NCBI GenBank assembly: GCA_963662285.2
Contig: CAXXMV010000001.1
Span: 64,001 to 128,000, forward strand
DNA from: a bacterium
GTDB lineage: Bacteria > Hinthialibacterota > Hinthialibacteria > Hinthialibacterales > Hinthialibacteraceae
DNA: 64,000 nucleotides
Reading direction: 5' to 3'
Shown: one piece after another, positions 1,964 through 48,134 of the stretch
Position numbering within the stretch: the stretch's first letter is position 1
Layout of the letters: every line of letters starts with the position of its first letter
Program-made: the position numbers and the translations under genes
The notes under the pieces: model-generated
Told to the model about the DNA's origin: nothing
What the model saw: only the letters and a program-made list of their open reading frames with translations
The model's database searches: none

Positions 1964-2082
1964 GATTTCACCCACTTAATGGAATAGCAGAATAAATCGA
2001 TAGTATGATTCTCTCAAAAAATTGAAGAAGAGTCTACTTGGAGGAAACAATATAACTAACAGATAGTAGATGGGGTGATGAT

Positions 2083-2691
2083 TTATTCTTCTTGCGTTTT
2101 GCGCTTAGGTTTCTTGGTTTGCTGCAAGAGATAACCGATAAAACAGAGAGGCAGAAAAAGAATGGGAATATCCATAGTATCAGAAAGAATGTAGGCGCCC
2201 AGGCAGGTGGTTAACAGAACAATAAGTTGTTTCTGGAAATATATGAATAAAAGAGATATTAACAATGCCAAGACCGCAGGCCATGCATTACCCAGAGTAT
2301 TATTAAGCGGTTCCAGGATGCCGATCCACGAAAAGAGTTGTTCAACTAAAGCCCGCTGCCGGTCATCAGCGTATAATATATAGAGTGCGCCGGATAATGA
2401 GCCGATAAAGATCAAAACAACATACATGCGTTTTGCCAATAAAACGCCAATAATTCCGGTTACGATGCCCACAAAAAACGCCGTATATGGATGCTGAGGG
2501 AAAAAGCGCAGCCATTCCTGGTTGATGATGCCGACCCAGGCGACTACCAGTTCGTACACGCTGGAACCAAAGACATAACCCAGCGCGAAACCCGTTGCGC
2601 GCAGCCCGTAACGAAACAGAGTCCACCCGAAGGCCAACAATCCTAAACCCAAGGCTAATCTTAAATAAATTTCAGGAGATATATTTAACAA
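2083..2691 (-). CDS. Multi-pass membrane protein (DUF4203/TMEM198-like)
   Basis: 202 aa with about 7 Gly-rich hydrophobic helices (LFRYGLRATGFALG; LTTCLGAY) and a basic C-terminal tail. Confidence 0.65.
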   Translation of the reverse strand: MLNISPEIYLRLALGLGLLAFGWTLFRYGLRATGFALGYVFGSSVYELVVAWVGIINQEWLRFFPQHPYTAFFVGIVTGIIGVLLAKRMYVVLIFIGSLSGALYILYADDRQRALVEQLFSWIGILEPLNNTLGNAWPAVLALLISLLFIYFQKQLIVLLTTCLGAYILSDTMDIPILFLPLCFIGYLLQQTKKPKRKTQEE

Positions 2692-2716
2692 TTATCAACA
2701 CCTATTTTTTAGTCAC

Positions 2717-6087: not shown

Positions 6088-6137
6088 ATGTTTATCTCTG
6101 AATTAAGGAATATTAATGCAAATTAAATGACAAATAA

Positions 6138-6180
6138 AACACCCGTCTATATTATGTTCATTGTAATATAGACGGGCGTT
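6138..6180 (-). terminator. Probable intrinsic terminator of the 6217..8730 gene
   Basis: Hairpin CCCGTCTATATT...AATATAGACGGG with a U-rich tail on the minus strand. Confidence 0.6.
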
Positions 6181-6216
6181 AAATGCAAAACAAACATTTC
6201 GGGATGCTAAATATAA

Positions 6217-8730
6217 CTATTCCCAAATCATCCAGTCTTCAACCGCTGTAACTACATCAGGAACCGGGATTCCTTCGCGGCCGGTTGGAATGGCGATTAG
6301 GCGTTGTTCGTAATATCTGAGCGGGTCGCTGGATAAACTATTTTTATAATAACTGCTGCATGCAAAAAGAGTTTTTGAATATTCTCCCCGGCCAAAAGCC
6401 AGGCCGCCCGATGAACCGATGTCATAAGTGAAGATGATTCTTTCGCCCTCAGGGCTTATTCTATATATATAGCCATAATCCTCATCGGTCACGTAAAGAA
6501 AACCGTCACGGTCAAAAGCCATACCCCGCAGCGCATTGGTGGAGAAATCATGATAGAGCGCAGCCGAGCCATCTGCTTGAATGCGGTAAATATTCGATTC
6601 TCCTACAGAGGCATTGCAGACTAATAATTCGCCATCCGGCGAAAAAGCCAGTCCGGTTGGATTGCGGACTGCTGAGGTATATTCCGTCCGCGTACCATCA
6701 GGAGCAATTTGCTCAACGATATCAGAACCTATTTGAGCAACTAGAAGATTGCCCTCCTTATCAAAGGTCATAGCGCTGGGGAAATTGAGATGATCCACAA
6801 AAGTTTCAGTGGCTCCACCGGGGAAAACTTTGACGATGCTATTGTTAACCGCGTTGGAGTAATAAAGCGTTCCTTCCTGGTCTATGGAGAGCGCGTTTGG
6901 CCCCAGCGTTCCGCCTTGGGTTGGAATGCCTTCAACCACAATTTCCATTGATCCGTCGAGTGCGTATTTACTTATCCGCCCCAGCGCCGAATCTGTGAGG
7001 TATAGGTTATTCTCTGTATCAACCGCCAATGCGTTGGGCATTCCTTCCATATCCGCGATGATTTTCGGAGCAGGCGCACTGAGCGGTACTGTTGAATTAT
7101 TAGCCCATGCCGCATCACTTACAGTCAGAAAGATTATTCCACCCGGCGTCGTCTCGACATCCAGTTCAACTGGTTTATCTTTTTCAATAGTAAACAAAAC
7201 CTCATCGCCGCTAAGATCGAAAACCATTGTGGCCGATAAGGGATAGGTGTCATCAGTGATAGCAGGCGTCGGGATTGAGATATGCACCCCAGCGGCGGAT
7301 GATGTAATGTCGATGAGATCGAAATCAATGTACGGCGCCGAGCGGTCGAATGTTGTTCCATGAGCCAATTGGATTACATAAACTCCGGTCAGCCTTTGGG
7401 TCATCTCCTGATCGGGTGAGGCGAATACCTGTATCCGGTATTGACCGGGGGCGGGCAGATCAATTCCACTGAGAATGGAGAAGACCCCGTCAACCGAATC
7501 GTCATTATAGAATACCATATTGCCTTGCATATCCATTATGCGAACCGCCGGATCAAGAAAATGCGCAGTGGGAGTCACCAGCACAGAGTAATCCTGTCCC
7601 TCTTCAGCGGTAAACAGATAACTGTCTTCGTCGCCAATAGGGCCGATTACTCCACCGAAAATAGAGCCATGCTCTAGCGCTATATCCTCTTCTTCATCTT
7701 CACGCATGTTGACCTCGACCTCAGTGTATCCGAGCATATCAGCGCCGACGCCCATGACTAGCAGATAGAGCGTATCATCTTCCACCGGAGTGAATCCCTG
7801 GATGAAAGCGGCTGGGTAGTCCTCCCGCGCTTCACTACTGGCGATAACATTTAATCTACTATCAGTCAAAGCAATAAGCGGGTAGAAATCGTCTATGGCG
7901 TATGCAGCAAAGTCGTAGACCTCATCGGTTTTTAAGGGAATCTGGTAAATACGCATATCACCGAAAATGCTGATCTCTTCATCGGAGATAAAGGGAGGAT
8001 TATAAAGCGGCGCCGAATGCGCCAGCATAGTATATGGACCGGTTGAATTGCTATATGCTCCATATAAAATAATCTGGTAGGTTCCATTCTCTTCCGGAGT
8101 AATCAGCAGAGTTGATCCGGTTCCGAAAAAATCATTATTATCCGCGACTACTTCTCCGGCTGCATTCATAACCTGGATATACGAATCCAAAATGCTTGAT
8201 GGGGTAGAGACCGTCAATAAAACTGGATTCCCCTTACGCACTGAGAGCGAGAAAGTATCCGCGTCATCTGCATTAGTTATGATTCCATCCACGCTTTGAT
8301 TTACGCTTAGAGGCCTATCATTCGCTTCATCTCCATCAAATTGACGAACGATAAAAGAGAAATCCATATCAACCTCTAAGAGTTTGTGAATTTTAATTGT
8401 GTACAGCCCTGATACAGGAACCTGAGTGAATATATACGCCCCGGCGAAATAGGGAAAATTCACAAATTCGTTGGATGCGATAATCTCGTCATTAATGTCC
8501 AATAAATCTAATCTAATGGGGTAATCACGTTCATCCACGTTTAAGGTTATTTCCAGCCATTTGCCGGATTGGGCTTCAACCGTATAAATCATTCTTGCTT
8601 GACTTGCCAGCATTGTTCCCTGATATTCCTGATCAAAGCTGACATAAGTTTGCGATAGAGCGCTTTGACTTAGAAATACAACCACTAACGTCATAAGCAG
8701 CCCATTGATTCGTTGCGTAGGTATATTCAT
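6217..8730 (-). CDS. Secreted protein with PPC (pre-peptidase C-terminal)-like repeats, an NHL/SMP-30-type beta-propeller and a C-terminal 'TAVEDWMIWE' tail
   Basis: Signal peptide; PPC-like repeats (DADTFSL..LDSYIQV..VADNNDF; DEDSYLF..LDPAVRI..YNDD); NHL-like repeats (PNALAVD, PSAMTFD, PTGLAFSPDG, RGMAFDRDG). Confidence 0.8.
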   Translation of the reverse strand: MNIPTQRINGLLMTLVVVFLSQSALSQTYVSFDQEYQGTMLASQARMIYTVEAQSGKWLEITLNVDERDYPIRLDLLDINDEIIASNEFVNFPYFAGAYIFTQVPVSGLYTIKIHKLLEVDMDFSFIVRQFDGDEANDRPLSVNQSVDGIITNADDADTFSLSVRKGNPVLLTVSTPSSILDSYIQVMNAAGEVVADNNDFFGTGSTLLITPEENGTYQIILYGAYSNSTGPYTMLAHSAPLYNPPFISDEEISIFGDMRIYQIPLKTDEVYDFAAYAIDDFYPLIALTDSRLNVIASSEAREDYPAAFIQGFTPVEDDTLYLLVMGVGADMLGYTEVEVNMREDEEEDIALEHGSIFGGVIGPIGDEDSYLFTAEEGQDYSVLVTPTAHFLDPAVRIMDMQGNMVFYNDDSVDGVFSILSGIDLPAPGQYRIQVFASPDQEMTQRLTGVYVIQLAHGTTFDRSAPYIDFDLIDITSSAAGVHISIPTPAITDDTYPLSATMVFDLSGDEVLFTIEKDKPVELDVETTPGGIIFLTVSDAAWANNSTVPLSAPAPKIIADMEGMPNALAVDTENNLYLTDSALGRISKYALDGSMEIVVEGIPTQGGTLGPNALSIDQEGTLYYSNAVNNSIVKVFPGGATETFVDHLNFPSAMTFDKEGNLLVAQIGSDIVEQIAPDGTRTEYTSAVRNPTGLAFSPDGELLVCNASVGESNIYRIQADGSAALYHDFSTNALRGMAFDRDGFLYVTDEDYGYIYRISPEGERIIFTYDIGSSGGLAFGRGEYSKTLFACSSYYKNSLSSDPLRYYEQRLIAIPTGREGIPVPDVVTAVEDWMIWE

Positions 8731-9130
8731 TTTCTGCTAAACCTTTTTATATAATCCAAGACCAATCAATTTTTTAGAACGCTACTAAATCAATACTTTA
8801 AACCAAAACAGGGGATTGTGTAATACATTTTTGTAAAGTTTTGTCTGTAGTTAAAAAAATATTGACAATGTCGTATCTTCATGAGAGACAGGTCTGGGCT
8901 AAATCCCGATGTTGGTTACTAATGTACACGAGTGAAACACCCTCCGAATTTGTTACCCGCTCGGTTCTTTGCCATATCATCAAAACGAATTTATTCGGTT
9001 TCGGGAATGATTGGATAACGCAATTAATTCTGAAGAAACAAAAAAACGCTGACAATCCTGCAATTCTTGGTAAGACAGGTTAAAATGAACTTATGACTGT
9101 CGAGATATAATTCATGTTCATATAATTCCA

Positions 9131-24559: not shown

Positions 24560-27500
24560 TTATGCATTCAGTATTTGACGGATTTTTGTGGCGATTTCTA
24601 TGTGGGTAAAGGGTTTTTGCAGCAAGTTCATTCCTTCATCCAGGATGCCATGATGCGCAATCAGATCGTCGGTGTAGCCGGATATAAAAAGGACTTTTGC
24701 TTTTGGATTCCTGGCGAGGACGTGATCGGATAATTCTTTACCGCTCATCCCGGGCATAATCACATCGGTGAGCAATAAATCAATTGAGTCATGGAACTGT
24801 TCGAACATGTTTAAACCCATTATGCCATCGTTTGCTACATGAACTATATAACCATATTTATTCAATGTCTTGATAGTCAGGTTTCTGACTAATTGATCAT
24901 CCTCAACCAGTAGTATAGTCTCTGAACCTTGCAGAGATTCGATGGTGATATCCGGTTTAATCATTACCTGCGGCTTCTCGTAAACGCGCGGGAAATATAG
25001 TTTGAAGGTGGTTCCTTTATTTAATTCACTGTATAACCAGATGCATCCATCGCTTTGTTTAACAATACCGTACACGGTAGAAAGTCCGAGACCCGTACCT
25101 TTACTGCGTTCTTTGGTTGTAAAAAATGGTTCGTAAATTCTTTCCTGGGTTTTTTTATCAATCCCGACGCCGGTATCGCTTACAGAAATCATGATGTAAT
25201 CACCGGGTTTTAGTTCTGGATGATGTTCAGTGTATTCATAATCTAATGATACATTAGCGGTTTCGATAATTAGTTTCCCGCCTTTGGGCATGGCGTCGCG
25301 CGCGTTGACTGACAAATTCAAAATTACTTGCTCGATTTGCCCCGGATCAGCTTTTACAATCCCTTCTTCTGAAGATAACCTGGTGATTAAGCGTACATCT
25401 TCTCCAATCAAGCGTTGCAGCATTTTTTCCATATCGCCAATATATTCATTGATTGACATCAACTTAGGCTGCAACACTTGTTTACGGCTGAATGCCAATA
25501 GTTGACGGGTTAAAGACCTGGCTCGCTGCGCTGCTTTTATTATCTGTTCTACATCATCGCGCGTTTGAGGGGGAAGGTTTTCTTCCATTAAAATAAAATC
25601 TGAATGCCCGATAATGGCCAAAATCAGATTATTGAAATCATGAGAGATGCCGCCGGCCAGTTTACCTATAGCTTCCATTTTTTGCGATTGACGTAATTGA
25701 TCCTGAAGATTTTCCAGATCAATCATGTCTTGTTGGAGTTTTTTATTGGCTTGTTGTATTTCTTTAGTGCGTTTACTGACAACATCTTCCAAACCGCTGG
25801 CGTATTTTGCCAGTTTGATCCTTGCTGACAAGGCGATAATAGCGGACGAGCAGACAGTTAAAAATATTAAAATGGTGACGGGCCAAAACCACACGCGATT
25901 CTGCAAAGGTATGGGTGGAATACTAAAACTGAATACTGCGGGAGAAGGATCAACATTCCCATTTCGGTCAACAGCCTTAACTTCTAATTGATGGGCGCCT
26001 ACTTCAAGCCCGGTGGCGGATGCGATGGTATCCGGTGAATATGACGACCATGGGCCATTATTAAACCGGTATGAGAATAATAATCGCTCGTCTCTGGTGT
26101 ATTTCCATTGATCCTTGCCTGTGAAGGAGAAATGCACCTCTCCGCCCGGCATAGCATTTTCTGCATTAATTTCCGGCGGAATATAGGTTTGTGGAGGATA
26201 GGGATCGGCCTCCGGGTGGTATTGGTATACTGATCCACCAGCCAGCGCCCATAACCTGTTGGAGGAATCTTCTATGACCTGATTAATTATTTTGTCGGGG
26301 AGACCTTCATCCGCCGAATGGGTAATCCAACTGTTTTTATAATAACGATGTAAATTTTTGCCAGATGCCACCCATATTCTGTCTTGGCTGTCTTTAATCA
26401 TGGAATTAATTCGTTCTTTAGCAGGAGAACTCTGAATTTTAGTCCACTTATCTCTATTATATTGCTGAATTATCCCTGTGCCTCCGATCCATACATTGTA
26501 ATCATCCACCTTAAGCGCGGTTATAGTATCTTTCCCCAAATAACCATCTTCTTCAGAAAATATCCGGTTTTCGCCTTTATCATGAAAGGCGACGCCTTCG
26601 GTGCTGCAAATCCAATATTGTTGATTGCCTAATGACAAAACATAGCGTATCCGGAGAAATTTTCTTGAAAAAACGTTGTCTATCAGCGGTTTAAAATCAA
26701 GGCCGTAAAATACACTATGTTGGTATTTTGAATCTGCATCATTCTCAATCCACACCAGGCCATCTTCTTCGGGGAAAACTTTCAGAATGTTCTTATTTTC
26801 AGGAATAGGAGCAAACTGATATTGCATATCTTCTTTGGTATCATAAAGACAAAGACGTTTTTCTGCGGAATAATTGTCGATAACAACAACAGCCAGTTGG
26901 TTATCAGATAATGAGGCAATCGAATTGTAAAAATGATAGTTTTCGGGAGGAAGATATTCAGAAAAACTATTATTATGAAAACGAAACAACTTTTCTTGCG
27001 CTAAAAACCAAAGGTTGTGCTTTGCATCCTCATAAATCGACATTATTTCATCATTAACAGAACGAAAATAATCATTCTCCTGCCATAGAGGAGGCGACCA
27101 TTTCAACACTCCATTCGCGGTTGCAACCCAGAATGTACCATCCCTAGAGTTCAACAAAGGTTTTGAAATAGCTTTTAATTCAAAAGGCATGTCATAATTA
27201 AATGAAGAATCCTTGATCTTAGTAAACACTGAATTATTTTTCAGCAACCAAATACTATGATCCGGGGTTTGCCATCCGTATTCAAGAATTTCATCATCGA
27301 TTTGGTATATAACGTTCCATTTATCTTTGTCAAATTCTAAAAGAACATACTTATCTTTATCATTTTCACCTATAACAAAAAAATGGTCAGAATCGCTGAT
27401 TAGTAAATTATGAAGCATGGATAATCCACTGGTTTGATCAAGAAGATAAACAGTTAATGTGATGCGGTTCGAGGTTAAATCGGTAAGATCGGTTTTAGCG

Positions 27501-28096
27501 ATTCCATTGTTTCCTACTATCCATATATTACTATCTGGAGTCCTATGAATTTCATGCAAACCACCCAAGGCATCAGGCGCATCGTTTTGTATGATAGTTG
27601 TTGATTTTGTATTAGCGTCGTATCGATAAATATGATTATTTTGAAGATAGAGTAATTGGTTGTTTCCAATGGGAACAAAAGGTAAGTTATGTTTATTATT
27701 GTCAAAGGATGATTCGATATTATCATCACGATATGGAATCCATGAGTTATCACTGAATTTCTGGAAACCGATTATAAATCTTTTGGTATCATCCCATAAA
27801 AGAGACCATAGGATTCCTGAAGCATCATCAATAATAGCAGCCCAATGCCCCGGGCTGGGGATATTCTCTACATCATAATCCTTTATTAGAGTTGATTTAT
27901 CAACATGACCATGGTTCAGCAAAATAGAACCATCTTTGCCTTGATAAATCTGCATAGTCCACGATTCGCCTAAATTGTCCTGGGCGTTCCATAACCTCCA
28001 CTCAACCAGATTTTCAGAAAAAGCAGATAATGATACAAACAGCAAAGCAATTATGCAGTAGAAGATGATTGTTTTATTTTTTTTTCTCATAGTCAT
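24560..28096 (-). CDS. Hybrid sensor histidine kinase/response regulator (beta-propeller + Y_Y_Y + TM + HisKA + HATPase + REC)
   Basis: Signal peptide, propeller repeats (DGTFWVAT, DSQDRIWVAS), FSYRFNNGPWS, H-box LAGGISHDFNN, NARDAMPKGG, DTGVG, PFFTTK..GTGLGL, and a receiver domain (ILLVEDD..LLLTDVIMP). Confidence 0.95.
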   Translation of the reverse strand: MTMRKKNKTIIFYCIIALLFVSLSAFSENLVEWRLWNAQDNLGESWTMQIYQGKDGSILLNHGHVDKSTLIKDYDVENIPSPGHWAAIIDDASGILWSLLWDDTKRFIIGFQKFSDNSWIPYRDDNIESSFDNNKHNLPFVPIGNNQLLYLQNNHIYRYDANTKSTTIIQNDAPDALGGLHEIHRTPDSNIWIVGNNGIAKTDLTDLTSNRITLTVYLLDQTSGLSMLHNLLISDSDHFFVIGENDKDKYVLLEFDKDKWNVIYQIDDEILEYGWQTPDHSIWLLKNNSVFTKIKDSSFNYDMPFELKAISKPLLNSRDGTFWVATANGVLKWSPPLWQENDYFRSVNDEIMSIYEDAKHNLWFLAQEKLFRFHNNSFSEYLPPENYHFYNSIASLSDNQLAVVVIDNYSAEKRLCLYDTKEDMQYQFAPIPENKNILKVFPEEDGLVWIENDADSKYQHSVFYGLDFKPLIDNVFSRKFLRIRYVLSLGNQQYWICSTEGVAFHDKGENRIFSEEDGYLGKDTITALKVDDYNVWIGGTGIIQQYNRDKWTKIQSSPAKERINSMIKDSQDRIWVASGKNLHRYYKNSWITHSADEGLPDKIINQVIEDSSNRLWALAGGSVYQYHPEADPYPPQTYIPPEINAENAMPGGEVHFSFTGKDQWKYTRDERLLFSYRFNNGPWSSYSPDTIASATGLEVGAHQLEVKAVDRNGNVDPSPAVFSFSIPPIPLQNRVWFWPVTILIFLTVCSSAIIALSARIKLAKYASGLEDVVSKRTKEIQQANKKLQQDMIDLENLQDQLRQSQKMEAIGKLAGGISHDFNNLILAIIGHSDFILMEENLPPQTRDDVEQIIKAAQRARSLTRQLLAFSRKQVLQPKLMSINEYIGDMEKMLQRLIGEDVRLITRLSSEEGIVKADPGQIEQVILNLSVNARDAMPKGGKLIIETANVSLDYEYTEHHPELKPGDYIMISVSDTGVGIDKKTQERIYEPFFTTKERSKGTGLGLSTVYGIVKQSDGCIWLYSELNKGTTFKLYFPRVYEKPQVMIKPDITIESLQGSETILLVEDDQLVRNLTIKTLNKYGYIVHVANDGIMGLNMFEQFHDSIDLLLTDVIMPGMSGKELSDHVLARNPKAKVLFISGYTDDLIAHHGILDEGMNLLQKPFTHIEIATKIRQILNA

Positions 28097-28224
28097 ACTT
28101 TTAATTTAAATAAAAAAACAAAAAAACGATTGTATACCATTGTTTGATAGTTTATAATCTACTTGTTTTACTTGAATAAAGCAACACAAATCCAGTGAAT
28201 TAACAAAACAAAAGGAGGATTTTC

Positions 28225-28560
28225 ATGGCTGCTAAAATCACTAAATCGTTTGTCCTGAAAGATCTCATAATTTTCGACGAGGGGAAAAAGTTTGTTATAG
28301 ATAAGCTTGAAATTGCGGAATCGGGTGAATTGGTCGGTATTTTGAAAAAAGATAAACATGAAGGCCCAATTCCCAAGACCGTAAACCGCATGGAAATTTC
28401 AGTCGAAGTTAGAGAGGATAATTTAATCCAAAAGACGCATAAATTCGTTGGACACAGTGATACGAATTTTGAAAAAGCAGAGGTATTTCCTGAGATTCAT
28501 CATTACGGCATATCATCAATATCGAATTACATGGTAGTACTGCCATCAAAGAAAAAATAG
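28225..28560 (+). CDS. Hypothetical protein
   Basis: 111-aa ORF with a strong AGGAGG RBS, followed by a terminator hairpin. Confidence 0.7.
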   Translation: MAAKITKSFVLKDLIIFDEGKKFVIDKLEIAESGELVGILKKDKHEGPIPKTVNRMEISVEVREDNLIQKTHKFVGHSDTNFEKAEVFPEIHHYGISSISNYMVVLPSKKK

Positions 28561-28572
28561 AACAAGTTATAT

Positions 28573-28639
28573 CTGTCCAACGAAAACTGAAATATGCAAT
28601 ATATACTTGTATTTCATTAGTAGTTGGACAGTTTTTTTT
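28573..28639 (+). terminator. Probable intrinsic terminator
   Basis: Long hairpin CTGTCCAAC...GTTGGACAG followed by a T run. Confidence 0.55.
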
Positions 28640-28775
28640 AGTAAAATTTCAGTTCCCGCAATTTGATTTAAGAAAACCAGATAAGATCATATTATTAGTC
28701 ATATGTTGATTAAATAGAAATGGGGAATTGCGTCTATTATTACGCGTTTTTCCAGCAATGTCTCTTAAACATTTT

Positions 28776-28960
28776 GTAACAGGTCAGCCATATGAAGCAG
28801 TAACACTATAACTATGTTTTATACAAGGCTTTTTTATTAAAATTCTCCCTCCAAGTTTGGGGGGAGTTAGAGGGGGGTTGCGTTTCAACGAATCGACCCC
28901 CACCTAACCTCCCCCAGGCTTGGGGGAGGGATAACGCACTTCAATTGGCTGACCAGTTAT
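28776..28960. mobile_element. 185-bp MITE-like element with 15-bp TIRs, an 8-bp target-site duplication and an internal inverted REP pair
   Basis: TIRs GTAACAGGTCAGCCA / TGGCTGACCAGTTAT (13/15 match). Flanking direct repeats AACATTTT at 28768-28775 and 28961-28968. Internal CTCCC..CCAAG..TTGGGGGGAG palindromes at 28841-28931. Confidence 0.7.
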
Positions 28961-28994
28961 AACATTTTTTAGAGTAAATTCAGGAATATTATCA

Positions 28995-29909
28995 ATGATA
29001 TCAAAAGGTATTGCATATATCGTCGATCAGAAATATGAGGAAATGTTGTATGTCTCATTGCTTAGTTTGTTGGATAAGGGAAATATAAAAGGGACTATCC
29101 CTATCATAGTATATTCATTCGGTTTTTCCGAAGAATATGAAGATAAAATCAAAGATTTGAATTATGTTGATATTCTTGATATTAATAAAATTACTGAAGT
29201 CTCTTATACTAACATTGATCCGCATCATCGGCAGCGTATTATCAAAACTCTGGTTTTCGATGATCTCTCGCCATTTGATATAACATTGTTGCTTGACGCC
29301 GATACCATAATTTTGAATGACATTAATGGAATTTTCCATAATCTGGAAAAGTCAGGATGCAGTTTCGCCGCAGTACCTGAAATCAAGCCTTCTCATGAAG
29401 ATTCGTTGTTTTTTTTCATCAAAAAATATAAAAGGAAAGATTTCGAAGTCGTCTCCAGGAAAGTATCAGAAATTTTAGGCCTTACCTTCCCCGATGATAT
29501 TAATATTCCCTATTTTAATGGCGGCGTACTATGCGCATATAAAGGCGATTGGAGCCGTGAATGGAGAGAGATTATTCTGCGGTCGCAACTGGCGCCAGAG
29601 GTGGAGATACGCGACGATCAGCTTCCATTACAGGCTGCATTGATCAATACCGAAACCAAAGTACTAACCCTTAATCCAACCTGGAATTTCAGTTTTTTCA
29701 CCAGCCTTGAATCCAATGGCCACTGGTGGAATATAATGGATTTATTTGATAGCAAAGCGCCAATGCAATCGACTTCGGGTGATATCGAACCTCTACGCAT
29801 CCTCCACGCTATCGGGGGAAAGTTATGGACAATACCGTTTATCCGGTTCCCGGCCAATAAGTTGTATCTTGATTACATGATGTCGATTATATACAAAAAA
29901 GAGAATTAA
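28995..29909 (+). CDS. Glycosyltransferase, GT8-like
   Basis: LLLDADTII (DxD), FAAVPE, YFNGGV, DDQLPL, LNPTWN and ILHAIG motifs. Confidence 0.85.
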   Translation: MISKGIAYIVDQKYEEMLYVSLLSLLDKGNIKGTIPIIVYSFGFSEEYEDKIKDLNYVDILDINKITEVSYTNIDPHHRQRIIKTLVFDDLSPFDITLLLDADTIILNDINGIFHNLEKSGCSFAAVPEIKPSHEDSLFFFIKKYKRKDFEVVSRKVSEILGLTFPDDINIPYFNGGVLCAYKGDWSREWREIILRSQLAPEVEIRDDQLPLQAALINTETKVLTLNPTWNFSFFTSLESNGHWWNIMDLFDSKAPMQSTSGDIEPLRILHAIGGKLWTIPFIRFPANKLYLDYMMSIIYKKEN

Positions 29910-29921
29910 AGGCAGCCTATT

Positions 29922-31115
29922 ATGCCCAATCATAATAATTTATGTTTTGCCGCAAAACCCCGCTTACATATTCTTGGCATTGCCCATACCCGTTTCACAG
30001 ATGAGTACTCCAATTGTTCATTCACTTCACTCACCCGCCGTTTTTGCAATATGATGCATGCAAATGGATACGAAGTATTTGTGTATGGAACTTCGGGCGG
30101 GCATTTGGAATGTACTGAATTTGTTGAATGCCTTGAAAAGAATGAATTCGAACGTTATTTCTATCAAAAAAAATCTGATTCTGAAAATCATTCATCAGGA
30201 AACCTGATTCAAGAAGGCTGGGCTTTATTTAATGAGAATTGCGAAACAGAGTTAAAACGCAGAATTCAAAAAAACGATATTGTCATAATTCATTTTGAAG
30301 ATTCTCAAAAATTCGCCTTTGACATACCTGAAGCAATAACCGTTGATGCGCACTATGGAATGATGAAACCGAAATATACCGTCTACCCCTCAAAAACATG
30401 GCGTTCTTATATGTATGGCTTGTCAATTCATAACACTATGCTTGAGAAAGTTGCACCTCCTTATTGGAATGATGTGGTTATATATCATTACCTCGATCTG
30501 GAGAGTTTCCCTCACCAGGAGCAAAAAGAAGATTACGCCGTCTTCCTGGGAAAAATCGTCACTACCAAGGGAGTATATGACGTCATACGTCTGTGCCAGG
30601 AGAAAGGGGTTAAATTAAAAATCGCTGGAAGCATAAACCAGGATATTGAAGAAGATTTATTTAAATACTTAAAAGAACATCCTACTGCTGAATATATGGG
30701 AGTACTGGATGCTAACCAGCGCACTCAATTGATTGGTAAAGCAAAATGCTTGTTTTGCCCGACTTACCACCTGGAGCCATTCGGTTTAATCGCCATTGAA
30801 GCCATGGCTACGGGAACGCCCGTTATTGCCACCGATTGGGGAGGCTTTTCTGAAACAGTGATACATGGCAAAACCGGTTTTTTGATTTCTCATTATTCAG
30901 ATTTGGGAAATGCGCTGGATAACATCGACCGAATCTCTCCCCATGACTGCAGGAAATGGATTGAAGCCAATTTTACAACCGGGATTGCTTTTGAATATTA
31001 CGACAGATTCTTTAAGCGGATCATGGCCATAGAATCATCCCAGGGGAATAGTTGGTATACTGCGAAATTCATTGGTGATGGGCCGATATCTCAGGTTTTG
31101 GTGCATCCCTGGTAA
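29922..31115 (+). CDS. Glycosyltransferase, GT4 (GT-B)
   Basis: FLGKIVTTKG and EPFGLIAIEAMATGTPVIATDWGGFSETVIHGKTGF. Confidence 0.9.
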   Translation: MPNHNNLCFAAKPRLHILGIAHTRFTDEYSNCSFTSLTRRFCNMMHANGYEVFVYGTSGGHLECTEFVECLEKNEFERYFYQKKSDSENHSSGNLIQEGWALFNENCETELKRRIQKNDIVIIHFEDSQKFAFDIPEAITVDAHYGMMKPKYTVYPSKTWRSYMYGLSIHNTMLEKVAPPYWNDVVIYHYLDLESFPHQEQKEDYAVFLGKIVTTKGVYDVIRLCQEKGVKLKIAGSINQDIEEDLFKYLKEHPTAEYMGVLDANQRTQLIGKAKCLFCPTYHLEPFGLIAIEAMATGTPVIATDWGGFSETVIHGKTGFLISHYSDLGNALDNIDRISPHDCRKWIEANFTTGIAFEYYDRFFKRIMAIESSQGNSWYTAKFIGDGPISQVLVHPW

Positions 31116-41826: not shown

Positions 41827-43140
41827 TCATACAATCCAGGGATCGCGCTTGGTCAATGACAGCATTTTGTTGGCTTCGTCATCATTGATGAAGCATTCTT
41901 TTATTGGATCCCATTTCAATTTACGGTTCAATTGCTTGGCGATGCCGCCGAGTAACATAACGCTGGCGGAGTGATGGGCTACGTTGACATTACAGATGGT
42001 TTGCTTACGGGTTTTGATGCATTCCAGGAAATTGCCCGAATGGCTGTCGCTGTGATAGACCTGGATATTATTGGCGCCCAGCGGCTTTTCAAGGATGCTG
42101 GGGGGTTTGGAAAGCAGATGTTCACGGTCGACGCCGATGCAGCCTTCTGATCCGAAATACCACCCGCCGCCGGTTTCACCGATTTTGTCGTCTTGATAGG
42201 GACGGCCATAAACTTTAACGCCATTCGCGTATACATAGACGGCGCTGCCATTTTCGATGCTGATCTCAACCGGGCCGGTTTTATCTGCATCCAGACACCA
42301 TTGTACAATATCATAATGATGCTGCCCCCAATTGATCCCGCCAAAACCAAATAAGTGAGCGTCTGAGCGGCCCTGATAGGGCATATCGGGCGCTGGTCCG
42401 AGCCATAAATCCCAATCCAATTCTTTGGGGATGGGTTGTTCCGCTTCGTGAGTTGTAGGCCAGATGGCGCCGCCGCCGTCGCGGAATGTATATATCTCTT
42501 TCAAATCGCCGATCCGTTGATTGCGCATGTACTCGCAGGCCACCCTGAACCGGGCGTCATATTCTGAGCGCTGCTGGGTTCCCGCCTGAAAGATGCATTT
42601 GTTTTCGGTGACGGCTTTAACCATCGCCTGACTTTCCGCGATGCAGACCGAGGTCGGTTTTTCGCAATAAATATCTTTCCCGGCTTTGGCGGCCAAGATC
42701 GCCATAGTGGCGTGCCAGTGGATGGGAGTGGCGATAAGAACGGCGTCTATATCTTTACGCGCCAGCACCTCACGGAAATCTTTATAGGCGGTAACTGATT
42801 GATATTCGCCTTTTTGATAGCGCTTGGCATAGAACTTATTAGCGCGGTAGCGAGAAACCTCACGCTTATTTTCCCAAACATCGCAAACCGCCAGGGTTTG
42901 AACGTCTTTACGTCCTATATATCCTTCGGGAAGATATGTCCATGCCTCGCCGAATAGATGCCCGTTGCCCATAGTTCCCATGCCGATAAAGGCCATGGTG
43001 ATCCGTTCGCTCGGCGCAACAGATTTATCGAGTCCCAGCGCGGAAGATGGTATTACGCTTGGCGCAGCCAAGGCCATTCCTACCAGGCTTCCACTATATT
43101 TGAGAAAATTCCGGCGTTTGATATTTTTGGATTGATCCAT
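41827..43140 (-). CDS. Tat-exported Gfo/Idh/MocA oxidoreductase
   Basis: Tat signal KRRNFLK, IGMGTMG, DAVLIATPIHWH, KDIYCEKP, GTQQRS and LDWDLWLGPAP. Confidence 0.92.
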   Translation of the reverse strand: MDQSKNIKRRNFLKYSGSLVGMALAAPSVIPSSALGLDKSVAPSERITMAFIGMGTMGNGHLFGEAWTYLPEGYIGRKDVQTLAVCDVWENKREVSRYRANKFYAKRYQKGEYQSVTAYKDFREVLARKDIDAVLIATPIHWHATMAILAAKAGKDIYCEKPTSVCIAESQAMVKAVTENKCIFQAGTQQRSEYDARFRVACEYMRNQRIGDLKEIYTFRDGGGAIWPTTHEAEQPIPKELDWDLWLGPAPDMPYQGRSDAHLFGFGGINWGQHHYDIVQWCLDADKTGPVEISIENGSAVYVYANGVKVYGRPYQDDKIGETGGGWYFGSEGCIGVDREHLLSKPPSILEKPLGANNIQVYHSDSHSGNFLECIKTRKQTICNVNVAHHSASVMLLGGIAKQLNRKLKWDPIKECFINDDEANKMLSLTKRDPWIV

Positions 43141-43417
43141 TGAACTCTATTCCTTTGCAGAGCGTTTGTTCCACATGCAGGCGATGCAGAAACATTTTAT
43201 ATATGGTTGAATTGATTCTCTCATAAAAAAGAGAGTCTTGTCAATCTGCCTTTTACTATAATTCACCTTAAAGAGAGGAGTAACTCCATTAACAGTATCG
43301 TATGCCTCTAAAGAGTTGAGCGTAGATCACATATTCTGGTAGTTTTTTTTTGACATGATCTAGTTTTGCATAGTATAATGTTAAGGTAATTATTACCCGG
43401 GAATGGAGTAAGAAAAA

Positions 43418-43645
43418 GTGAAGACTGCAGAAGAATATATTATTGGCTTCAATAAGCTTCCCCCGGAAGAGAAACAAATAGTCGTTGACTTTGTGATCTC
43501 TACCGAGGAAGAGGTATTCAAGGAAACCAAATATTCAGAAGAAGATTTGGCTTTACTCGACCAACGTTATGAAGAAGCCAAAAAAGGGATCAATGTAGAT
43601 AGATTTTCCTCGATGGAAGAAGCGATTAACTCAAAACTAGTTTGA
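43418..43645 (+). CDS. Small antitoxin-like protein (addiction-module type), no cognate toxin visible
   Basis: 75 aa with a GGAG RBS and GTG start. KLPPEEKQIVVDF...LLDQRYEEAKKG..FSSMEEAI resembles addiction-module antitoxins. Confidence 0.55.
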   Translation: MKTAEEYIIGFNKLPPEEKQIVVDFVISTEEEVFKETKYSEEDLALLDQRYEEAKKGINVDRFSSMEEAINSKLV

Positions 43646-43726
43646 ACAGAATTACTTATCTGTCGTTGGTCTATTATTGAATTTCCAGCATTACAATTAT
43701 TATTTGTAGAGAAGGATAAATCATTA

Positions 43727-44611
43727 CTAGGGAGTTGTAGAAGAATTAACACTACATGAATTCATTATTTCTATTTCAAGTTTTTTATTCTCAAGTAGTG
43801 ATGGTGGTTTAACTATTTCATTCCCAGTCGGTATCTGTGGTTCAATTAGGGATTCAGAGAGTTCAACATTACTTTGTGAATCTTTTAATTGCTCTCGTAT
43901 TTTATTGTTATTATTTTTCAACTCTCTTGAATCATTGTCGATAACCATAAAAGCACATAAAAGCATAAATGATAAAAGACCTAATGTAATAGCTCTACAT
44001 GAAGCTCTAAAGACTCCTATTCTATAGTTATTACACTCTGAAAGTTTGTCGCCACAGTGAAAAAACTCTTGTACAAAGAATCTCTTAACCTTATTAAGGT
44101 CAGCAAAAGACATGACTCTTTTCTGATTTGGGACGTAAACCGTTTGTACTCCAAAATGTACAAGAACAAGAAAGATCGCGCTTGTAATTAGTATTAAAGG
44201 AATTAAGATTAGCCATTTTATTTTTATATTTGGACTAACGAATGCAAGTGCAGTAATTAATAGAGCCGCTATGGTAAGAATAATCTTATTCTTCTCATCA
44301 ATGATTTGGCTTCTCTTTTCTTCATCATCATAATGGGAATGGGATGAACTTAATTGTATATCAAGAATCGCTGGATCAATTGACTCTTCGTTCTCTCCCA
44401 ATTGTTCGCTCTCTTCCCCTTGTTCTAAAGAAGTAAACATGCGATTTTTTTCTACTTCCTGATACGTATGTCCTGGATTAAGGATAAAGAGTAATATCCA
44501 AGTTATTCTATTTAAGCATTTTTCGTACCATTTCTCAAAAGTTTCAAATAATTTATTTATTCTATTGTTTAAGAGTATTAATAAAGGCATCTGAAATATT
44601 TGCTCCTCCAA
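43727..44611 (-). CDS. 3-TM membrane protein in the graspetide operon (start uncertain; ATG 44440 is an alternative)
   Basis: RSQIIDEKNKIILTIAALLITAL / WLILIPLILITSAIFLVLVHF / NNYRIGVFRASCRAITLGLLSFMLL. The ORF overlaps the end of the ATP-grasp gene. Confidence 0.7.
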   Translation of the reverse strand: MEEQIFQMPLLILLNNRINKLFETFEKWYEKCLNRITWILLFILNPGHTYQEVEKNRMFTSLEQGEESEQLGENEESIDPAILDIQLSSSHSHYDDEEKRSQIIDEKNKIILTIAALLITALAFVSPNIKIKWLILIPLILITSAIFLVLVHFGVQTVYVPNQKRVMSFADLNKVKRFFVQEFFHCGDKLSECNNYRIGVFRASCRAITLGLLSFMLLCAFMVIDNDSRELKNNNNKIREQLKDSQSNVELSESLIEPQIPTGNEIVKPPSLLENKKLEIEIMNSCSVNSSTTP

Positions 44612-45515
44612 AAATATCTAGCCAAGCCCATTGTCCATTGGGGTTGATTTCAAAGAAATACCATTCCCCCAATTCTGTTACACCAAAGTCAAGTGCAGCA
44701 AATCGTAACTTGTAACTACGCAGAAGATTTCTTATAGCAATAGAAATCTTCATTGGTATATCGATTGGGAAATATTCCACATTATCCATATTATCGCGAC
44801 GAATGTCTAATTGTTCAATATTGTTTTTTAATCCCATGCCAACTAGAGTATTGTCAATTACTGTTACCCTGACATCAAATATCTTCTCTATTTGTGATTG
44901 GAAGAGAATAGGGCATGTGCTAATTTTTTCCAAGAGAATATGGTGTTCCTCTTTGAAAAGATTAGTATAGATAATTGTGTCGTTATCAAGATGATCTCTC
45001 TCAATGTAGCCACTAGCCAGAGGTTTCACGATTATGCCGTTTGGTTCTGAATGGATAAAATTTTTAGCTTCTTCAATGTTGTTTGTGACTATAGTTCGGG
45101 GAATCATCAAACCATATTTCTTAGCTCGACTTAATTGTTCGATCTTGTGGCTAGCACAAGAGTTTCGTGCAGGATGATTGATCCAATATTCTTCTTCAAT
45201 ATGCGCCAAAAATCCTTCAATTGATTCTGACCATTCCCCTGCAGTATGCATTTCTGCGTATTCATCTTCTATCTTTTCAATATTAATGGGCTTGGGTCTT
45301 CTTAAGATTACGGTTTTTATCTGTTCCGGTTGTATTGAATCAAAAGCCCATTTTAGGTTCAATGATTCAGGCTTGTAAGAAAATAACGATGTACAACAAT
45401 CAATATCTGTATTAAATCGGCAAAAAGGTAAATCATGCTCTTCTAGCCGCATGCAGAGATAATCTGATGTTGTATCTTCTGAATTTGTAAGTATAAAAAC
45501 CTTATTAGTGTTCAT
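44562..45515 (-). CDS. ATP-grasp ribosomal peptide maturase (MvdC/MvdD family, graspetide synthetase)
   Basis: FCRFNTD, WINHP, HKIEQLSRAKKYGLMIPRTIVTN, IVKPL, ILFQSQIEKIFDVRVTVI, DIRR, FAALDF and FFEINPNGQWAWL. Overlaps the precursor gene by 4 bp. Confidence 0.92.
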   Translation of the reverse strand: MNTNKVFILTNSEDTTSDYLCMRLEEHDLPFCRFNTDIDCCTSLFSYKPESLNLKWAFDSIQPEQIKTVILRRPKPINIEKIEDEYAEMHTAGEWSESIEGFLAHIEEEYWINHPARNSCASHKIEQLSRAKKYGLMIPRTIVTNNIEEAKNFIHSEPNGIIVKPLASGYIERDHLDNDTIIYTNLFKEEHHILLEKISTCPILFQSQIEKIFDVRVTVIDNTLVGMGLKNNIEQLDIRRDNMDNVEYFPIDIPMKISIAIRNLLRSYKLRFAALDFGVTELGEWYFFEINPNGQWAWLDIFGGANISDAFINTLKQ

Positions 45516-45826
45516 GATTTGTGGGTTTGGGGTATAGAGAAAAAATTCCGATTGCTTTCGTCTTGGTCGTTCTCCTCTCGCGCTTCTGTAAGTGTTTTTG
45601 TTTGTAAATCTGTTTTGAGTGGCAACGCATTATAACTAGCGTTTTCTCTATTTTGTTCAGGTTCTTCCCGAGCTTTCGTAATCGTTTTAGATGCATTATA
45701 CATAAGCCTATAATCCTGTTGCCCTTGTTGTTTCGTTAGTGTTTTATTCCCTTCAGTAGAATCTTGTTTATCAGGAACTACCTTCTCTTCAAAAATGGAC
45801 CAAAATCTACTTTCAATCATTTTCAT
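45512..45826 (-). CDS. Multi-core graspetide (omega-ester peptide) precursor
   Basis: 104 aa with a GAGAGG RBS. Leader SRFWSIFEE; repeats KTLTKQQGQQD, KTITKAREEPEQ and TKTLTEAREENDQDE (TxTxxxExxDxD). Directly coupled to the ATP-grasp gene. Confidence 0.85.
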   Translation of the reverse strand: MKMIESRFWSIFEEKVVPDKQDSTEGNKTLTKQQGQQDYRLMYNASKTITKAREEPEQNRENASYNALPLKTDLQTKTLTEAREENDQDESNRNFFSIPQTHKS

Positions 45827-46054
45827 TCCTCTCAGTTTTTTTAGATATGGTATCTTTCTAAAATTATTGTAGTTAGATTTTTAAACAATACTTCATTTGT
45901 ATAATTTATTATACACGACTTTATAATAATTATTATACAATGTCTAGTTTTCATAATATTTTCGTGTTAATAAAATATGTGGGAAAAATTACTTTTCAAA
46001 AGAATAGATATTAAATGAAGATTTATTTCAATCTAACGTTGAAACTGAAGGATT

Positions 46055-46089
46055 TGTTCAAAGCCCCAATATTTCGGAGGCTTTGAACA
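46055..46089. repeat. Palindrome (terminator/REP-like), same family as 51858
   Basis: TGTTCAAAGCC...GGCTTTGAACA. Confidence 0.6.
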
Positions 46090-46130
46090 TGAATTATTAA
46101 ATATGATATTTGGAGAAGCGCTCTAACAGT

Positions 46131-47339
46131 TTATTTTTCAAGAGCGCGTAATTTTTTAGTTGCCAGTTTCAAATCTATCGGGTGCACCTGATTTACGATC
46201 TCTTCACGCATGGCTTTTCCTGCTTCGGTTTGTTGGGGGTAGGATATAAAACCGAGTTGCAAATCGAGTTTCCTGGCCAGACGCCGCGTAATGGCCGGCC
46301 AAATCAAACCCAGGTCGCCGATAACCGGCAGACTGTTGGGCAGCCGGGCGAAGCCTGACATCTCCATGCGGAACGGGATTTTGAACATTTTGGTTTTGGG
46401 CTGCCCGTCAGCGATAGCTTTTTGAACGCTGCCGCCTTCCCTTTCGATCTGCCATGCTTTATCAAGAGCGGGATCTAAATCGATGCGGATGATGGTTTTG
46501 CCTTCGAGCGAATAGGTGGGGTGTCCCTGCCAGGCAGACCACATGCCATGTCCGGTATAACGTTCCAGTGGTCCGTCGTGAATCTCTTGAGTCAATGCCA
46601 CGCCGGATTCAATAATGATATCAGCTTCGCTAAGCAAATCAGCTAAACGGTTGGCTCGTTCGGTGATGCTGATGCTATCGCCGATGCATAGACCAACCAT
46701 CCCGCCGCCGATCAGTTGGGGAATGGTCACCATAACTGGAATGTTCTTTTTGGCGCCCATACCGATCATGGTTCGTTCGCTGGCGCCAAGCCCGGCGACC
46801 TCTTCAAAGCACATGCCGTGTGAACGAGCCAGCATGACGATTTCCATTGATACGCGTTCGAGCCATAGGCCAACCGGATAACCAAGATTACCCGCCGCCT
46901 TAATGATGGTTTTACCTTCGGCTTGCTTGAGCCGTTCCATCAATTCCCGGTCGATCGGCATATACTCTTCAATATCTTGGAGTACTTTCGGGCTGAGTTC
47001 AGTCAGTTCAAAGTCGCCGCCATAAGGTAATAGATGAGGCGATACGCCGACCGATTCGCCCTGACAGCGTTTGACCTTATCTAACGTCCCGCCCATTTCA
47101 TGAGCTATGACCGCAGAACTTGTGGTGACTCCATCAATAATGCCCAAACTCATTAGTTCGGCGATTAAGGTAGTGACGCCTTCATGGACGTTAGGGCCGC
47201 TGCCAGTGACCACTACTACCTTTTTGCCATTCTGTTTTGCGTTAACAATAAGATCAGCGGATTGATTAATCCGGTCTAAGGTTTTGGAATCTAATATTTC
47301 TTCCGATTTTTCAATAATCTGATTGTAATTCTTGTCCAT
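46131..47339 (-). CDS. Hypothetical enzyme with a deoxyhypusine-synthase-like (DHS-like NAD-binding) N-terminus
   Basis: VVVVTGSGPNVHEGVTTLIAELMSLGIIDGVTTSSAVIAHEM and IGMGAKKNIPVMV resemble DHS-like proteins. Lies 18 bp downstream of the kdsB-like gene. Confidence 0.55.
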   Translation of the reverse strand: MDKNYNQIIEKSEEILDSKTLDRINQSADLIVNAKQNGKKVVVVTGSGPNVHEGVTTLIAELMSLGIIDGVTTSSAVIAHEMGGTLDKVKRCQGESVGVSPHLLPYGGDFELTELSPKVLQDIEEYMPIDRELMERLKQAEGKTIIKAAGNLGYPVGLWLERVSMEIVMLARSHGMCFEEVAGLGASERTMIGMGAKKNIPVMVTIPQLIGGGMVGLCIGDSISITERANRLADLLSEADIIIESGVALTQEIHDGPLERYTGHGMWSAWQGHPTYSLEGKTIIRIDLDPALDKAWQIEREGGSVQKAIADGQPKTKMFKIPFRMEMSGFARLPNSLPVIGDLGLIWPAITRRLARKLDLQLGFISYPQQTEAGKAMREEIVNQVHPIDLKLATKKLRALEK

Positions 47340-47357
47340 GCTATATCGGCCTTCTTC

Positions 47358-48134
47358 TTACTTAAGATTACGTTCGAGCAACATTGCTTCCGCTCGTAGA
47401 GCATCCTCTTCAGTGTCAATATTGAATCCATGAAACTCAGTGTTTTGGCATTTAGACTCGATCACCCGTAACTTATAGCCGTTTTCAAGTACCCGTAATT
47501 GCTCTAATGACTCAATCTGCTCCAGAGGAGTAGGAGACAAACCAGCGAGTTTAATCAAAAAATCTTTGGTATAGACGTACATTCCAACGTGTTCAAATAC
47601 AGAATGGGCAAAATCTTTTTGAGGATAGGGAATCAAAGAACGGGAAAAATATAAAGCGTTGCCATGTAAATCTGTAACAACTTTTACAATCCCCGGATCA
47701 TGCATATCCGCTTCATTTTTGATGGGATGCATCAATGTACACATATTAATCGAATCATCATCAAGTAAGGGTTGTACGCCTTCATCAATCATGACGGGAT
47801 CAATAAAAGGCTGGTCACCCTGAATATTTACTACTATATCCATATCTATGGTTTGAACCGCCTCAGCTATGCGGTCCGTTCCGCTCACGTGATCAACTGA
47901 CGTCATAATGGCTTTACCACCGAAAGATTCAACTACAGACGATATGCGCTGATCGTCGGTGACAACATAAACCTCTTGCAGAGACGTACATTTTATCACT
48001 CGTTCATAAACTCTTTGAATCATGGGAACGCCTAGAATCGGCCTCAGCGCTTTTCCGGGCAACCGGGTTGATCCATATCGAGCAGGGATAAAACCTACAA
48101 CCTTTTTTTGATTCATAATCAATGTCCTTCTCAT
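47358..48134 (-). CDS. kdsB: 3-deoxy-manno-octulosonate cytidylyltransferase (KdsB-like)
   Basis: IPARYGSTRLPGKAL, HVSGTDRIAE, VNIQGDQP, ALYFSRSLIPY, ESLEQLRVLENG and IDTEED motifs. Confidence 0.88.
   Translation of the reverse strand: MRRTLIMNQKKVVGFIPARYGSTRLPGKALRPILGVPMIQRVYERVIKCTSLQEVYVVTDDQRISSVVESFGGKAIMTSVDHVSGTDRIAEAVQTIDMDIVVNIQGDQPFIDPVMIDEGVQPLLDDDSINMCTLMHPIKNEADMHDPGIVKVVTDLHGNALYFSRSLIPYPQKDFAHSVFEHVGMYVYTKDFLIKLAGLSPTPLEQIESLEQLRVLENGYKLRVIESKCQNTEFHGFNIDTEEDALRAEAMLLERNLK

Follow-up and report, generated by a model that had tools for sequence, protein, structure and literature searches.

A probable graspetide cassette with a conserved membrane partner on an AT-rich island of a Hinthialibacteria genome

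We analysed a 64,000-nucleotide (nt) stretch of a Hinthialibacteria genome (contig CAXXMV010000001.1 of assembly GCA_963662285.2, positions 64,001 to 128,000; in the following called the window) with regard to three genes that together resemble a cassette for the biosynthesis of graspetides, i.e., omega-ester members of the RiPPs (ribosomally synthesized, post-translationally modified peptides). The listing of open reading frames (ORFs) shows three overlapping ORFs on the minus strand, namely a precursor peptide (45512-45826), a graspetide-type ATP-grasp ligase (44562-45515) and a membrane protein (43727-44611). A preliminary description of the window had reported three overlapping minus-strand genes and quoted short strings from their products, and the listing agrees with both. 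The precursor ORF encodes 104 amino acids (aa), including SRFWSIFEE and TKTLTEAREENDQDE. Its probable start is the second ATG (45820), which is preceded at a distance of 7 nt by the ribosome-binding site GAGAGG and yields the 102-aa form of the gene call. The ligase comprises 317 aa. For the membrane partner, the gene call gives 287 aa (43727..44590, minus strand; ATG at 44590, P0122) and the ORF extends to a TTG at 44611 (294 aa). Precursor and ligase overlap by the 4 nt of ATGA, ligase and membrane gene by 29 nt, and the genes are translationally coupled. In an A-run 10 nt before the first ATG of the precursor (45836), one base is missing in one assembled contig of the sequencing run X2; the contig of run X1 equals the window.

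Among the NCBIfam models, the ligase matches TIGR04187 (ATP-grasp ribosomal peptide maturase) with 223 bits (E 5.5e-66, model positions 2-311 of 312). The scores of MvdC (TIGR04185), MvdD (TIGR04184), grasp-with-spasm (TIGR04192) and RimK are 157, 132, 85 and 27.6 bits, respectively. The cassette had been described beforehand as graspetide-type, with a clustering of the enzyme with RimK/LysX-type ligases named as the outcome that would speak against it. Such clustering is not seen, and the preference for the TIGR04187, MvdC and MvdD models (223/157/132 bits) bears the proposal out. The ligase belongs to the MvdC/MvdD/TgmB superfamily and has a pre-ATP-grasp domain, which is one mark of a graspetide system. 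This is also reflected in solved structures, where one of the 7 matches at E <= 0.001 is a designed protein and each of the other 6 is either MvdD-like or a graspetide ligase. The nearest solved relatives are AMdnB, CdnC, MdnC, MdnB and an MvdD-like protein, and PsnB is matched very weakly (E 1.6e-6). An alignment of 42 family sequences has 56 invariant columns, all of which (56/56) are kept by the window ligase, including the block FEINPNGQWAW. The string EINPNGQW, which the preliminary description placed at the end of the enzyme, is present, though at residues 289-296 of 317 and not at the terminus. The host genome holds one copy of the ligase, and PADLOC reports no defence family for ligase or precursor.

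The precursor starts with a putative recognition motif common to its relatives, namely the leader motif FWSIFEE (residues 8-14; 45785..45805, minus strand). It is followed, on the same strand, by a degenerate repeat 1 NKTLTKQQGQQD (residues 27-38; 45713..45748) with a single acidic residue, by core repeat 2 SKTITKAREEPEQN (residues 46-59; 45650..45691), after which YNALP is found, and by core repeat 3 TKTLTEAREENDQDE (residues 76-90; 45557..45601), after which FFSIP is found. That is, the window precursor has two full Thr/Arg/acid repeats (SKTITKAREEPEQN, TKTLTEAREENDQDE), while repeat 1, which aligns with the first core of the precursor from the related locus L004, is stripped of acids. A sequence search with the precursor returns only itself, and its relatives were found as neighbours of homologous ligases. 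The L004 precursor (145 aa) aligns with that of the window at E 2e-14 (pairwise), and the pattern KT[LIVM]T..RE[ED] occurs twice when the genome is translated in all six frames, each time within the precursor ORF. Given this alignment and the restriction of the core motif to this ORF, we consider the precursor ORF to be more than a chance reading frame.

Near the N-terminus of all 10 precursors that were read from related loci (L001, L004, L005, L006, L038, L039), a leader motif F[LIW]x[RIK][FY][EQ]E is observed, with the variants FWRHFEE, FLLRYEE, FLLRFEE, FILRFQE, FLMRFEE, FILRFLE and FLLKFEE. Each precursor (window, L001, L004, L005, L006, L038, L039) carries between 1 and 4 repeats of the form T-x-T-x-x-R-x-E-x-x-D-x-D. 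Most repeats have an aromatic-x-[AS]-[IL]-P stretch some residues after them, and a small residue plus Gly precedes each repeat in most relatives. Several relatives have tandem precursor genes (L005, 3459-4013; L006, 3393-4022; L038, 3177-3652), i.e., a short single-core and a longer three-core precursor, each with its own leader motif. The adjacent precursor of the window, with its conserved leader and Thr/Ser ahead of Asp/Glu, is the second mark of a graspetide system. The leader motifs PFFARFL of microviridins and LFIEDL of plesiocin are reported to activate the ligase (PMC8939145, section 5; 10.1101/2021.03.09.434688), and we infer that FWSIFEE would have an analogous role. The nucleophiles precede the acids in the known graspetides covered in PMC7823629. 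Plesiocin is given as tetravalent and thuringinin as trivalent, with two esters per repeat, in the legend of Fig. 1 of PMC12291112. As far as the sequence tells, the window precursor shows this pattern of multivalent graspetides.

The order precursor(s)-ligase-membrane gene is found in all complete loci (7/7; window, L001, L004, L005, L006, L038, L039). L038 and L039 were located via the membrane protein and not via the ligase, and a further locus (L007) is truncated within the ligase. The L004 ligase is 59% identical to that of the window, and a ligase homolog (P0006) and a relative of the membrane protein (P0123) have consecutive locus tags. The surroundings of some of these cassettes were read by eye. 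Beside the L001 cassette (1603-3310, 6079-8556) lie a tyrosine recombinase/integrase, a PIN/ribbon-helix-helix pair and an 825-aa subtilase-like S8 peptidase, beside the L006 cassette (5850-8954) an NTPase-like protein of >1000 aa and beside the L004 cassette (2-1261) a DNA methyltransferase.

With regard to the membrane partner, neither Pfam nor NCBIfam has a family for it, and ten close relatives were found. With a profile trimmed of the collagen tail, 501 representative clusters are collected at E <= 0.001, and 322 of them also at E <= 1e-10. Three natural fusions (P0162, P0247 and P0272; 571-584 aa), drawn from both sub-branches of the family in the tree described below, start with a complete or almost complete ligase (203-223 bits for TIGR04187), after which the membrane domain follows. 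Since the ligase comes first in these fusions, the N-terminus of the membrane partner is expected to be cytoplasmic. Hydropathy yields three transmembrane (TM) helices (TM1 103-121, TM2 127-145, TM3 200-218) with a tight TM1-TM2 hairpin, and the TM2-TM3 loop is rich in Lys/Arg, which places the tail outside. The AlphaFold model has a predicted local distance difference test (pLDDT) of 79-93 over residues 71-240 with helices at 73-121, 125-147 and 165-248. Of the 12 close relatives, 11 carry a collagen-type Gly-X-Y tail, as do 60 of 140 representatives, i.e., the tract is optional within the family; the window protein lacks it, which looks like an in-frame loss. The family alignment shows no invariant polar triad suggestive of an enzyme; the near-invariant positions, one Arg and one Lys, lie on the helix leading into TM1. 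A Foldseek search with the model against the Protein Data Bank and viral structures gave no match at E <= 0.001 and generic long-helix matches only, and the predicted complex of ligase and membrane protein has a score of 0.00, which is uninformative either way. In the literature searched, we found no paper tying a collagen-like membrane protein to graspetide clusters, and the only paper with both terms applies collagen-like to the peptide corallotide.

The core of the membrane partner (residues 72-218; 43937..44377, minus strand), i.e., an amphipathic helix with R..DxKxxxLLT followed by TM1-TM3, resembles PycTM, which is described as a membrane-spanning pore former in the introduction of PMC11224242. 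We compared by hhalign a profile of 140 family members with 14 PF18967 proteins, which had been drawn from 13 of 401 genomes, score above the Pfam cut-off and were then aligned. The comparison yields a probability of 90.4% with an E of 1.4e-6 over 143 collinear columns, covering PycTM positions 20-182 of 188. Reversed profiles reach 0.5-0.6%, and of 20 shuffles (in blocks of 20 columns), whose median lies near 8%, the best reaches 70% over 43 columns. The PADLOC models of PycTM weakly match 8 family members in a set of 12 and 12 in a set of 140 (best E 6e-5). The nearest named cluster in the ESM Atlas is PycTM with 0.88-0.89, which by the rating of the tool is a lead only. Several results count against this kinship, and with it against the membrane step of the reading developed below. 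The Pfam model PF18967 (cut-off 27.2 bits) does not match the membrane protein at E <= 1 nor any of the 140 members at E <= 0.01, the weak Pfam matches of family members spread across many unrelated membrane families, and a profile of 7 sequences gave 56% against PycTM. Across the host genome, PF18967 has two unrelated matches only (E about 0.5). A pyrimidine cyclase partner (PycC) is absent from the island around the cassette, and PADLOC finds no cyclase. On balance we lean towards a remote homology of the membrane partner to PycTM. In the literature searched, no paper mentions PycTM together with ATP-grasp.

The cassette lies on an AT-rich island (43150..46130) with a guanine-cytosine (GC) content of 0.334 compared to 0.440 for the genome. 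In 400-nt intervals, the GC content is 0.27-0.37 across 43200-46199 and 0.43-0.54 in most flanking intervals, with a drop of the flank to about 0.39-0.41 at 47.2-48.4 kb. The difference also manifests at third codon positions, where the GC content is 0.25-0.30 in the three cassette genes versus 0.53-0.56 in two adjacent genes. Across the whole genome (7.29 Mb, GC 0.440, standard deviation 0.036 for 3-kb intervals), 39 of 7267 intervals are as AT-rich as the island, whose earlier description as AT-rich thus agrees with the computed profile. Low GC is not confined to the cassette within the window, since a second AT-rich stretch (24560-31115) has about 35% GC. Its first product is a hybrid sensor kinase/response regulator of 1178 aa, which has a large repeat domain at the N-terminus, and glycosyltransferase-like genes come next. 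A short-read contig, possibly from the source sample, runs across 42000-47500 with 0 differences, which shows only that the island junctions are bridged. The island contains the three cassette genes and a 75-aa ORF. Neither a protease nor an ABC (ATP-binding cassette) exporter is among its ORFs, just as had been noted before, the island offers no other transporter, and Peptidase_C39 has no match across the host genome (92.5% complete).

Homologs of the ligase were searched with a word index, and 818 of 1393 candidates match at E <= 0.001, the best non-self ones being 61-62% identical. Among the 120 matches listed, six name an organism, and all six are metagenome-assembled genomes of the class Phycisphaerae (Sedimentisphaerales, Phycisphaerales, Phycisphaerae). 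A ligase match at E <= 1e-20 is absent from all 34 other genomes of the host class, which make up the whole phylum in the collection (completeness 68-99%). Presence in the host alone (1 of the 35 phylum genomes) argues for an acquisition. We also computed a tree of 25 rows, comprising 12 family members picked by hand across the identity range, the loci, the three fusion proteins and four named references. Here, the window ligase lies inside a Phycisphaerae-type clade (support 99/96), and TgmB, the B. thuringiensis ligase and MvdC/MvdD form a separate long-branched group. The cassette membrane protein is found in 3 of 401 sampled genomes of the class of L001, which is annotated as Limisphaerales. 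Given the 1/35 presence in the phylum, the nested position and the outlying composition, horizontal acquisition of the cassette is well supported, as the preliminary description had supposed, and a Phycisphaerae-type donor lineage is suggested. The supposition that the cluster is probably uncharacterised likewise stands, as no characterised member of the family was found in the literature searched. Phage records hold two weak ligase matches, and 11 viral contigs carry ligases of 23-34% identity. The Acaryochloris plasmid pMB09 (L009, 3501-4467) has a 42% identical ligase in four pieces, annotated as short hypothetical proteins and adjoining two integrase genes and an IS1 transposase; this looks like a decayed copy carried by the plasmid.

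Upstream of the precursor, a putative control region (45896..45999, minus strand) contains a palindromic TGTATAAT..ATTATACA element in two copies as well as two sites resembling promoters. The sigma-70-like sites are located at 45999-45972 and 45946-45918 of the minus strand, and the direct repeat D1 has one copy at 45896-45915 and the other at 45920-45939. The palindrome TGTATAAT-AA-ATTATACA and its imperfect twin stand 24 nt apart in a spacer of 27% GC 5' of the precursor (45896-45939), and the pair is a candidate for an operator or for tandem -10 boxes. At the other end of the island, a perfect sigma-70 consensus (TTGACA, 18 nt, TATAAT) on the plus strand (43350-43379) precedes the 75-aa ORF (43418-43645, plus strand), which is acidic, lies inside the AT-rich island and is convergent with the cassette. 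This ORF has no match in Pfam, NCBIfam or PADLOC; its N-terminus 'KLPPEEK...' is, as we take it, reminiscent of small addiction-module antitoxins, and no toxin gene lies downstream.

No terminator-like site was found at the cassette, and neither convincing flanking direct repeats nor a nearby tRNA, i.e., signs of attachment, were found around the island. To the right of the island, KdsB and a 402-aa gene are kept in the relatives G011 and G004, while the subsequent genes differ in each. Thus, the cassette sits at a synteny break, and a clean empty site is not demonstrable in these relatives, as their genes differ beyond the KdsB/402-aa pair. The 402-aa gene itself (46131-47339, minus strand) has weak matches only (GSU2086 family domain; deoxyhypusine-synthase-like N-terminus). 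Of the 19 other genomes in the host family, 9 have it with an identity of 56-76%, and it follows kdsB wherever inspected.

We therefore read the three genes, with reasonable though not full confidence, as a functional, horizontally acquired graspetide (omega-ester RiPP) pathway of the multivalent plesiocin/thuringinin kind. By homology, the precursor would dock on the ATP-grasp ligase with its leader helix (FWSIFEE). Following the chemistry of the family, the ligase would use ATP to activate the Glu/Asp residues of each core, and the upstream Thr hydroxyls would attack them such that nested macrolactones result. Of the three repeats, the first is degenerate and the other two (residues 46-59 and 76-90) look like competent cores, such that a bivalent hairpin peptide would be expected as product. 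Between the Thr and acid blocks lies a conserved Arg that would occupy the loop, which makes inhibition of a trypsin-type serine protease the most likely activity; as such, a protease-inhibitor function is a tentative proposal for which the chances are slightly below even. The membrane protein, whose three helices would leave the N-terminus inside and the tail outside, might work with the ligase at the membrane and provide a passage for the finished peptide in place of the usual ABC exporter. We regard this export role as evenly balanced between true and false.

A number of points speak against the pathway reading or limit it. First, the window copy is somewhat eroded compared to its relatives, i.e., the acids of repeat 1, most of the small-residue-Gly pairs and the collagen-type tract have disappeared. 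Second, the ligase stays below the TIGR04187 cut-off (223 versus 350 bits), as it does for MvdC/MvdD (157/132 versus 425/475 bits), and the MvdD pre-ATP-grasp domain PF21068 matches residues 5-116 with 23.8 bits, which is below its cut-off of 27. As all ligase scores are under the curated cut-offs, we assign the enzyme to a separate subfamily. Finally, we infer the ring number, the topology and the activity of the product alike.

The alternative that survives best takes the cassette for a conflict or abortive-infection module, and not for a secreted natural-product pathway. In such a module, a PycTM-like membrane-disrupting effector would be controlled by the modified peptide, possibly as a crosslinked plug or as a decoy by which a phage protease is sensed. 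Such a role would account for the remote PycTM similarity, the ligase-effector fusions and the patchy, mobile distribution. It would also fit the mobile or defence-type neighbours in L001, L004 and L006 and the IS1 element beside the broken Acaryochloris plasmid copy, although these neighbour genes were read by eye in few loci. We nevertheless hold it to be unlikely, given that no cyclase or other known sensor is present, that neither ligase nor precursor belongs to a PADLOC defence family, that the relatives on viral contigs are only 23-34% identical, and that the characterised multivalent graspetides are introduced as protease inhibitors in PMC13097080.

A product that stays inside the cell, with the membrane protein acting as immunity or anchoring factor, is quite improbable in our view. 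This reading takes up the lack of an ABC exporter or leader peptidase in the island and of a C39 domain in the genome, as well as a precursor that, read from its sequence, has no signal peptide. The plesiocin and thuringinin clusters are, however, equally transporter-less, and for the latter a transport role of the membrane proteins was proposed by Makarova et al. (as given in PMC8939145, section 7). The periplasm-facing tail and the pore-like core better suit a passage. The intracellular action that the preliminary description had derived from the missing exporter is therefore not upheld, i.e., plesiocin and thuringinin share the layout, and the membrane gene is conserved beside the ligase and sometimes fused to it.

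We give a similarly small chance to the window copy being the decaying, non-functional remnant of an acquired cassette. The degenerate repeat 1, the lost small-residue-Gly pairs before the cores, the in-frame loss of a collagen-type tract that 11 of 12 close relatives have, the strongly foreign composition and the clearly broken copy on the Acaryochloris plasmid all point in this direction. They are opposed by three frames that are all open, a ligase that retains 56/56 invariant columns, intact overlaps and ribosome-binding sites and the full Thr/Arg/acid pattern in two cores; moreover, the tract is matched in only 60 of 140 representatives and is thus optional. The reading as a RimK/LysX/glutathione-synthetase-type ligase of primary metabolism beside a spurious small ORF, which draws on weak PF02955 and RimK family matches and on several homologs named 'glutathione synthase/RimK-type ligase-like ATP-grasp enzyme' by the Joint Genome Institute (JGI), is already contradicted by the model scores (RimK 27.6 versus 223 bits for the RiPP maturase model) and by precursor conservation (7/7 loci; homology with L004 at E 2e-14), such that next to nothing is left of it.

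If the graspetide pathway is taken as the preferred reading, the cassette as such is an addition to a well-known RiPP class and no surprise. What appears new, as far as our searches reach, is that the partner forms a large family, that it occurs in natural fusions with the ligase and that it is probably akin to PycTM. Multivalent graspetide clusters without exporters carry uncharacterised membrane proteins, and the window family provides a handle on the release step. As the partner is always beside the ligase, is fused to it in three cases and combines a tail that is predicted to point outward and is often collagen-like with a pore-like core, this step becomes directly testable. The conserved loop Arg, in turn, is a concrete prediction for the protease target. 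Going further, the membrane proteins of transporter-less graspetide clusters might, in this family, be PycTM-type pore formers coupled or fused to the ligase, and the whole either a minimal make-and-release machine or an abortive-infection-style module in which the crosslinked peptide gates the pore. We put this forward as a doubtful conjecture; if true in either version, RiPP biosynthesis and phage-defence effectors share a membrane module. The properties of the partner named above also hint at an exchange of membrane modules between defence systems and natural-product pathways.

Among the known systems, TgmA/TgmB (SAV_5884, TIGR04187), which stands for actinobacterial graspetides and graspimiditides, provides the best curated model for the window ligase, matched over its full length, and likewise has the precursor directly upstream. 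The window cassette differs from it by the score (223 < 350 bits), by the absence of an O-methyltransferase, by an identity of 26-31% to tgmB of Streptomyces/Kitasatospora and by a position outside its clade. With microviridin (MvdC/MvdD, MdnB/MdnC), the window shares the ligase superfamily, the pre-ATP-grasp domain and a recognition that depends on the leader helix. In contrast to microviridin, it has one ligase instead of two and lacks both the TxKxPSD core and a Lys as amide partner, and the scores stay below the respective cut-offs, i.e., the cassette is not of the microviridin type. Nor does it have the genes for HlyD and for a peptidase-containing ABC transporter (PCAT) that are found in the Nostoc microviridin locus. 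The likeness to PycTM consists in a collinear order, namely an amphipathic helix D-x-K-x-x-x-L-L-T into TM1, a tight hairpin, TM2, a loop and an aromatic-Arg helix into TM3. The window family differs from PycTM in an extra N-terminal region of ~70 residues, an often collagen-type tail, an ATP-grasp partner or fusion and the lack of a cyclase.

Closest in kind are plesiocin and thuringinin (groups 2 and 3; ester-only, one ligase), with which the window shares tandem cores, a single ligase, Thr before Glu/Asp and a short hydrophobic/acidic leader motif. Their clusters are depicted as precursor, ligase and a membrane protein that has no known function (10.1101/2021.05.19.444834, legend of Fig. 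1; PMC8939145, section 7). For sequence comparisons, we used a locus on the B. thuringiensis plasmid pHS18-2 (L008, 3168-5826), which we take to be thuringinin-type, as a stand-in for the published thuringinin cluster. It encodes, in this order, a ligase of 393 aa, whose N-terminal part is annotated as PH domain, a membrane protein of 361 aa and a four-repeat precursor of 130 aa, and lies beside an IS6 transposase. The preliminary description had called the window core thuringinin-like. This is partly borne out, in that the four pHS18-2 cores (TTxxTxxxENxDxDE) resemble TKTLTEAREENDQDE of the window; the likeness does not extend to the two proteins. The pHS18-2 ligase is 31% identical to that of the window and lies outside its clade, and the comparison of the membrane proteins by hhalign (probability 0.1-0.9%) reveals no detectable homology. 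Orthology of ligase and membrane protein to the stand-in is not found, and the precursor comes first in the window and last in the pHS18-2 locus. The analogy between both loci is thus positional and not evolutionary, and a single export partner shared across multivalent graspetides is unsupported. The graspetide class and the three-gene layout are already known. A survey from 2026 counts 21,584 predicted members in 43 groups (PMC13097080, section 7), among which, according to the same source, long repeat precursors are frequent in groups 34 and 35, and an unassigned extra protein accompanies group 34, which could be the window family. The window family may well be among these surveyed graspetides.

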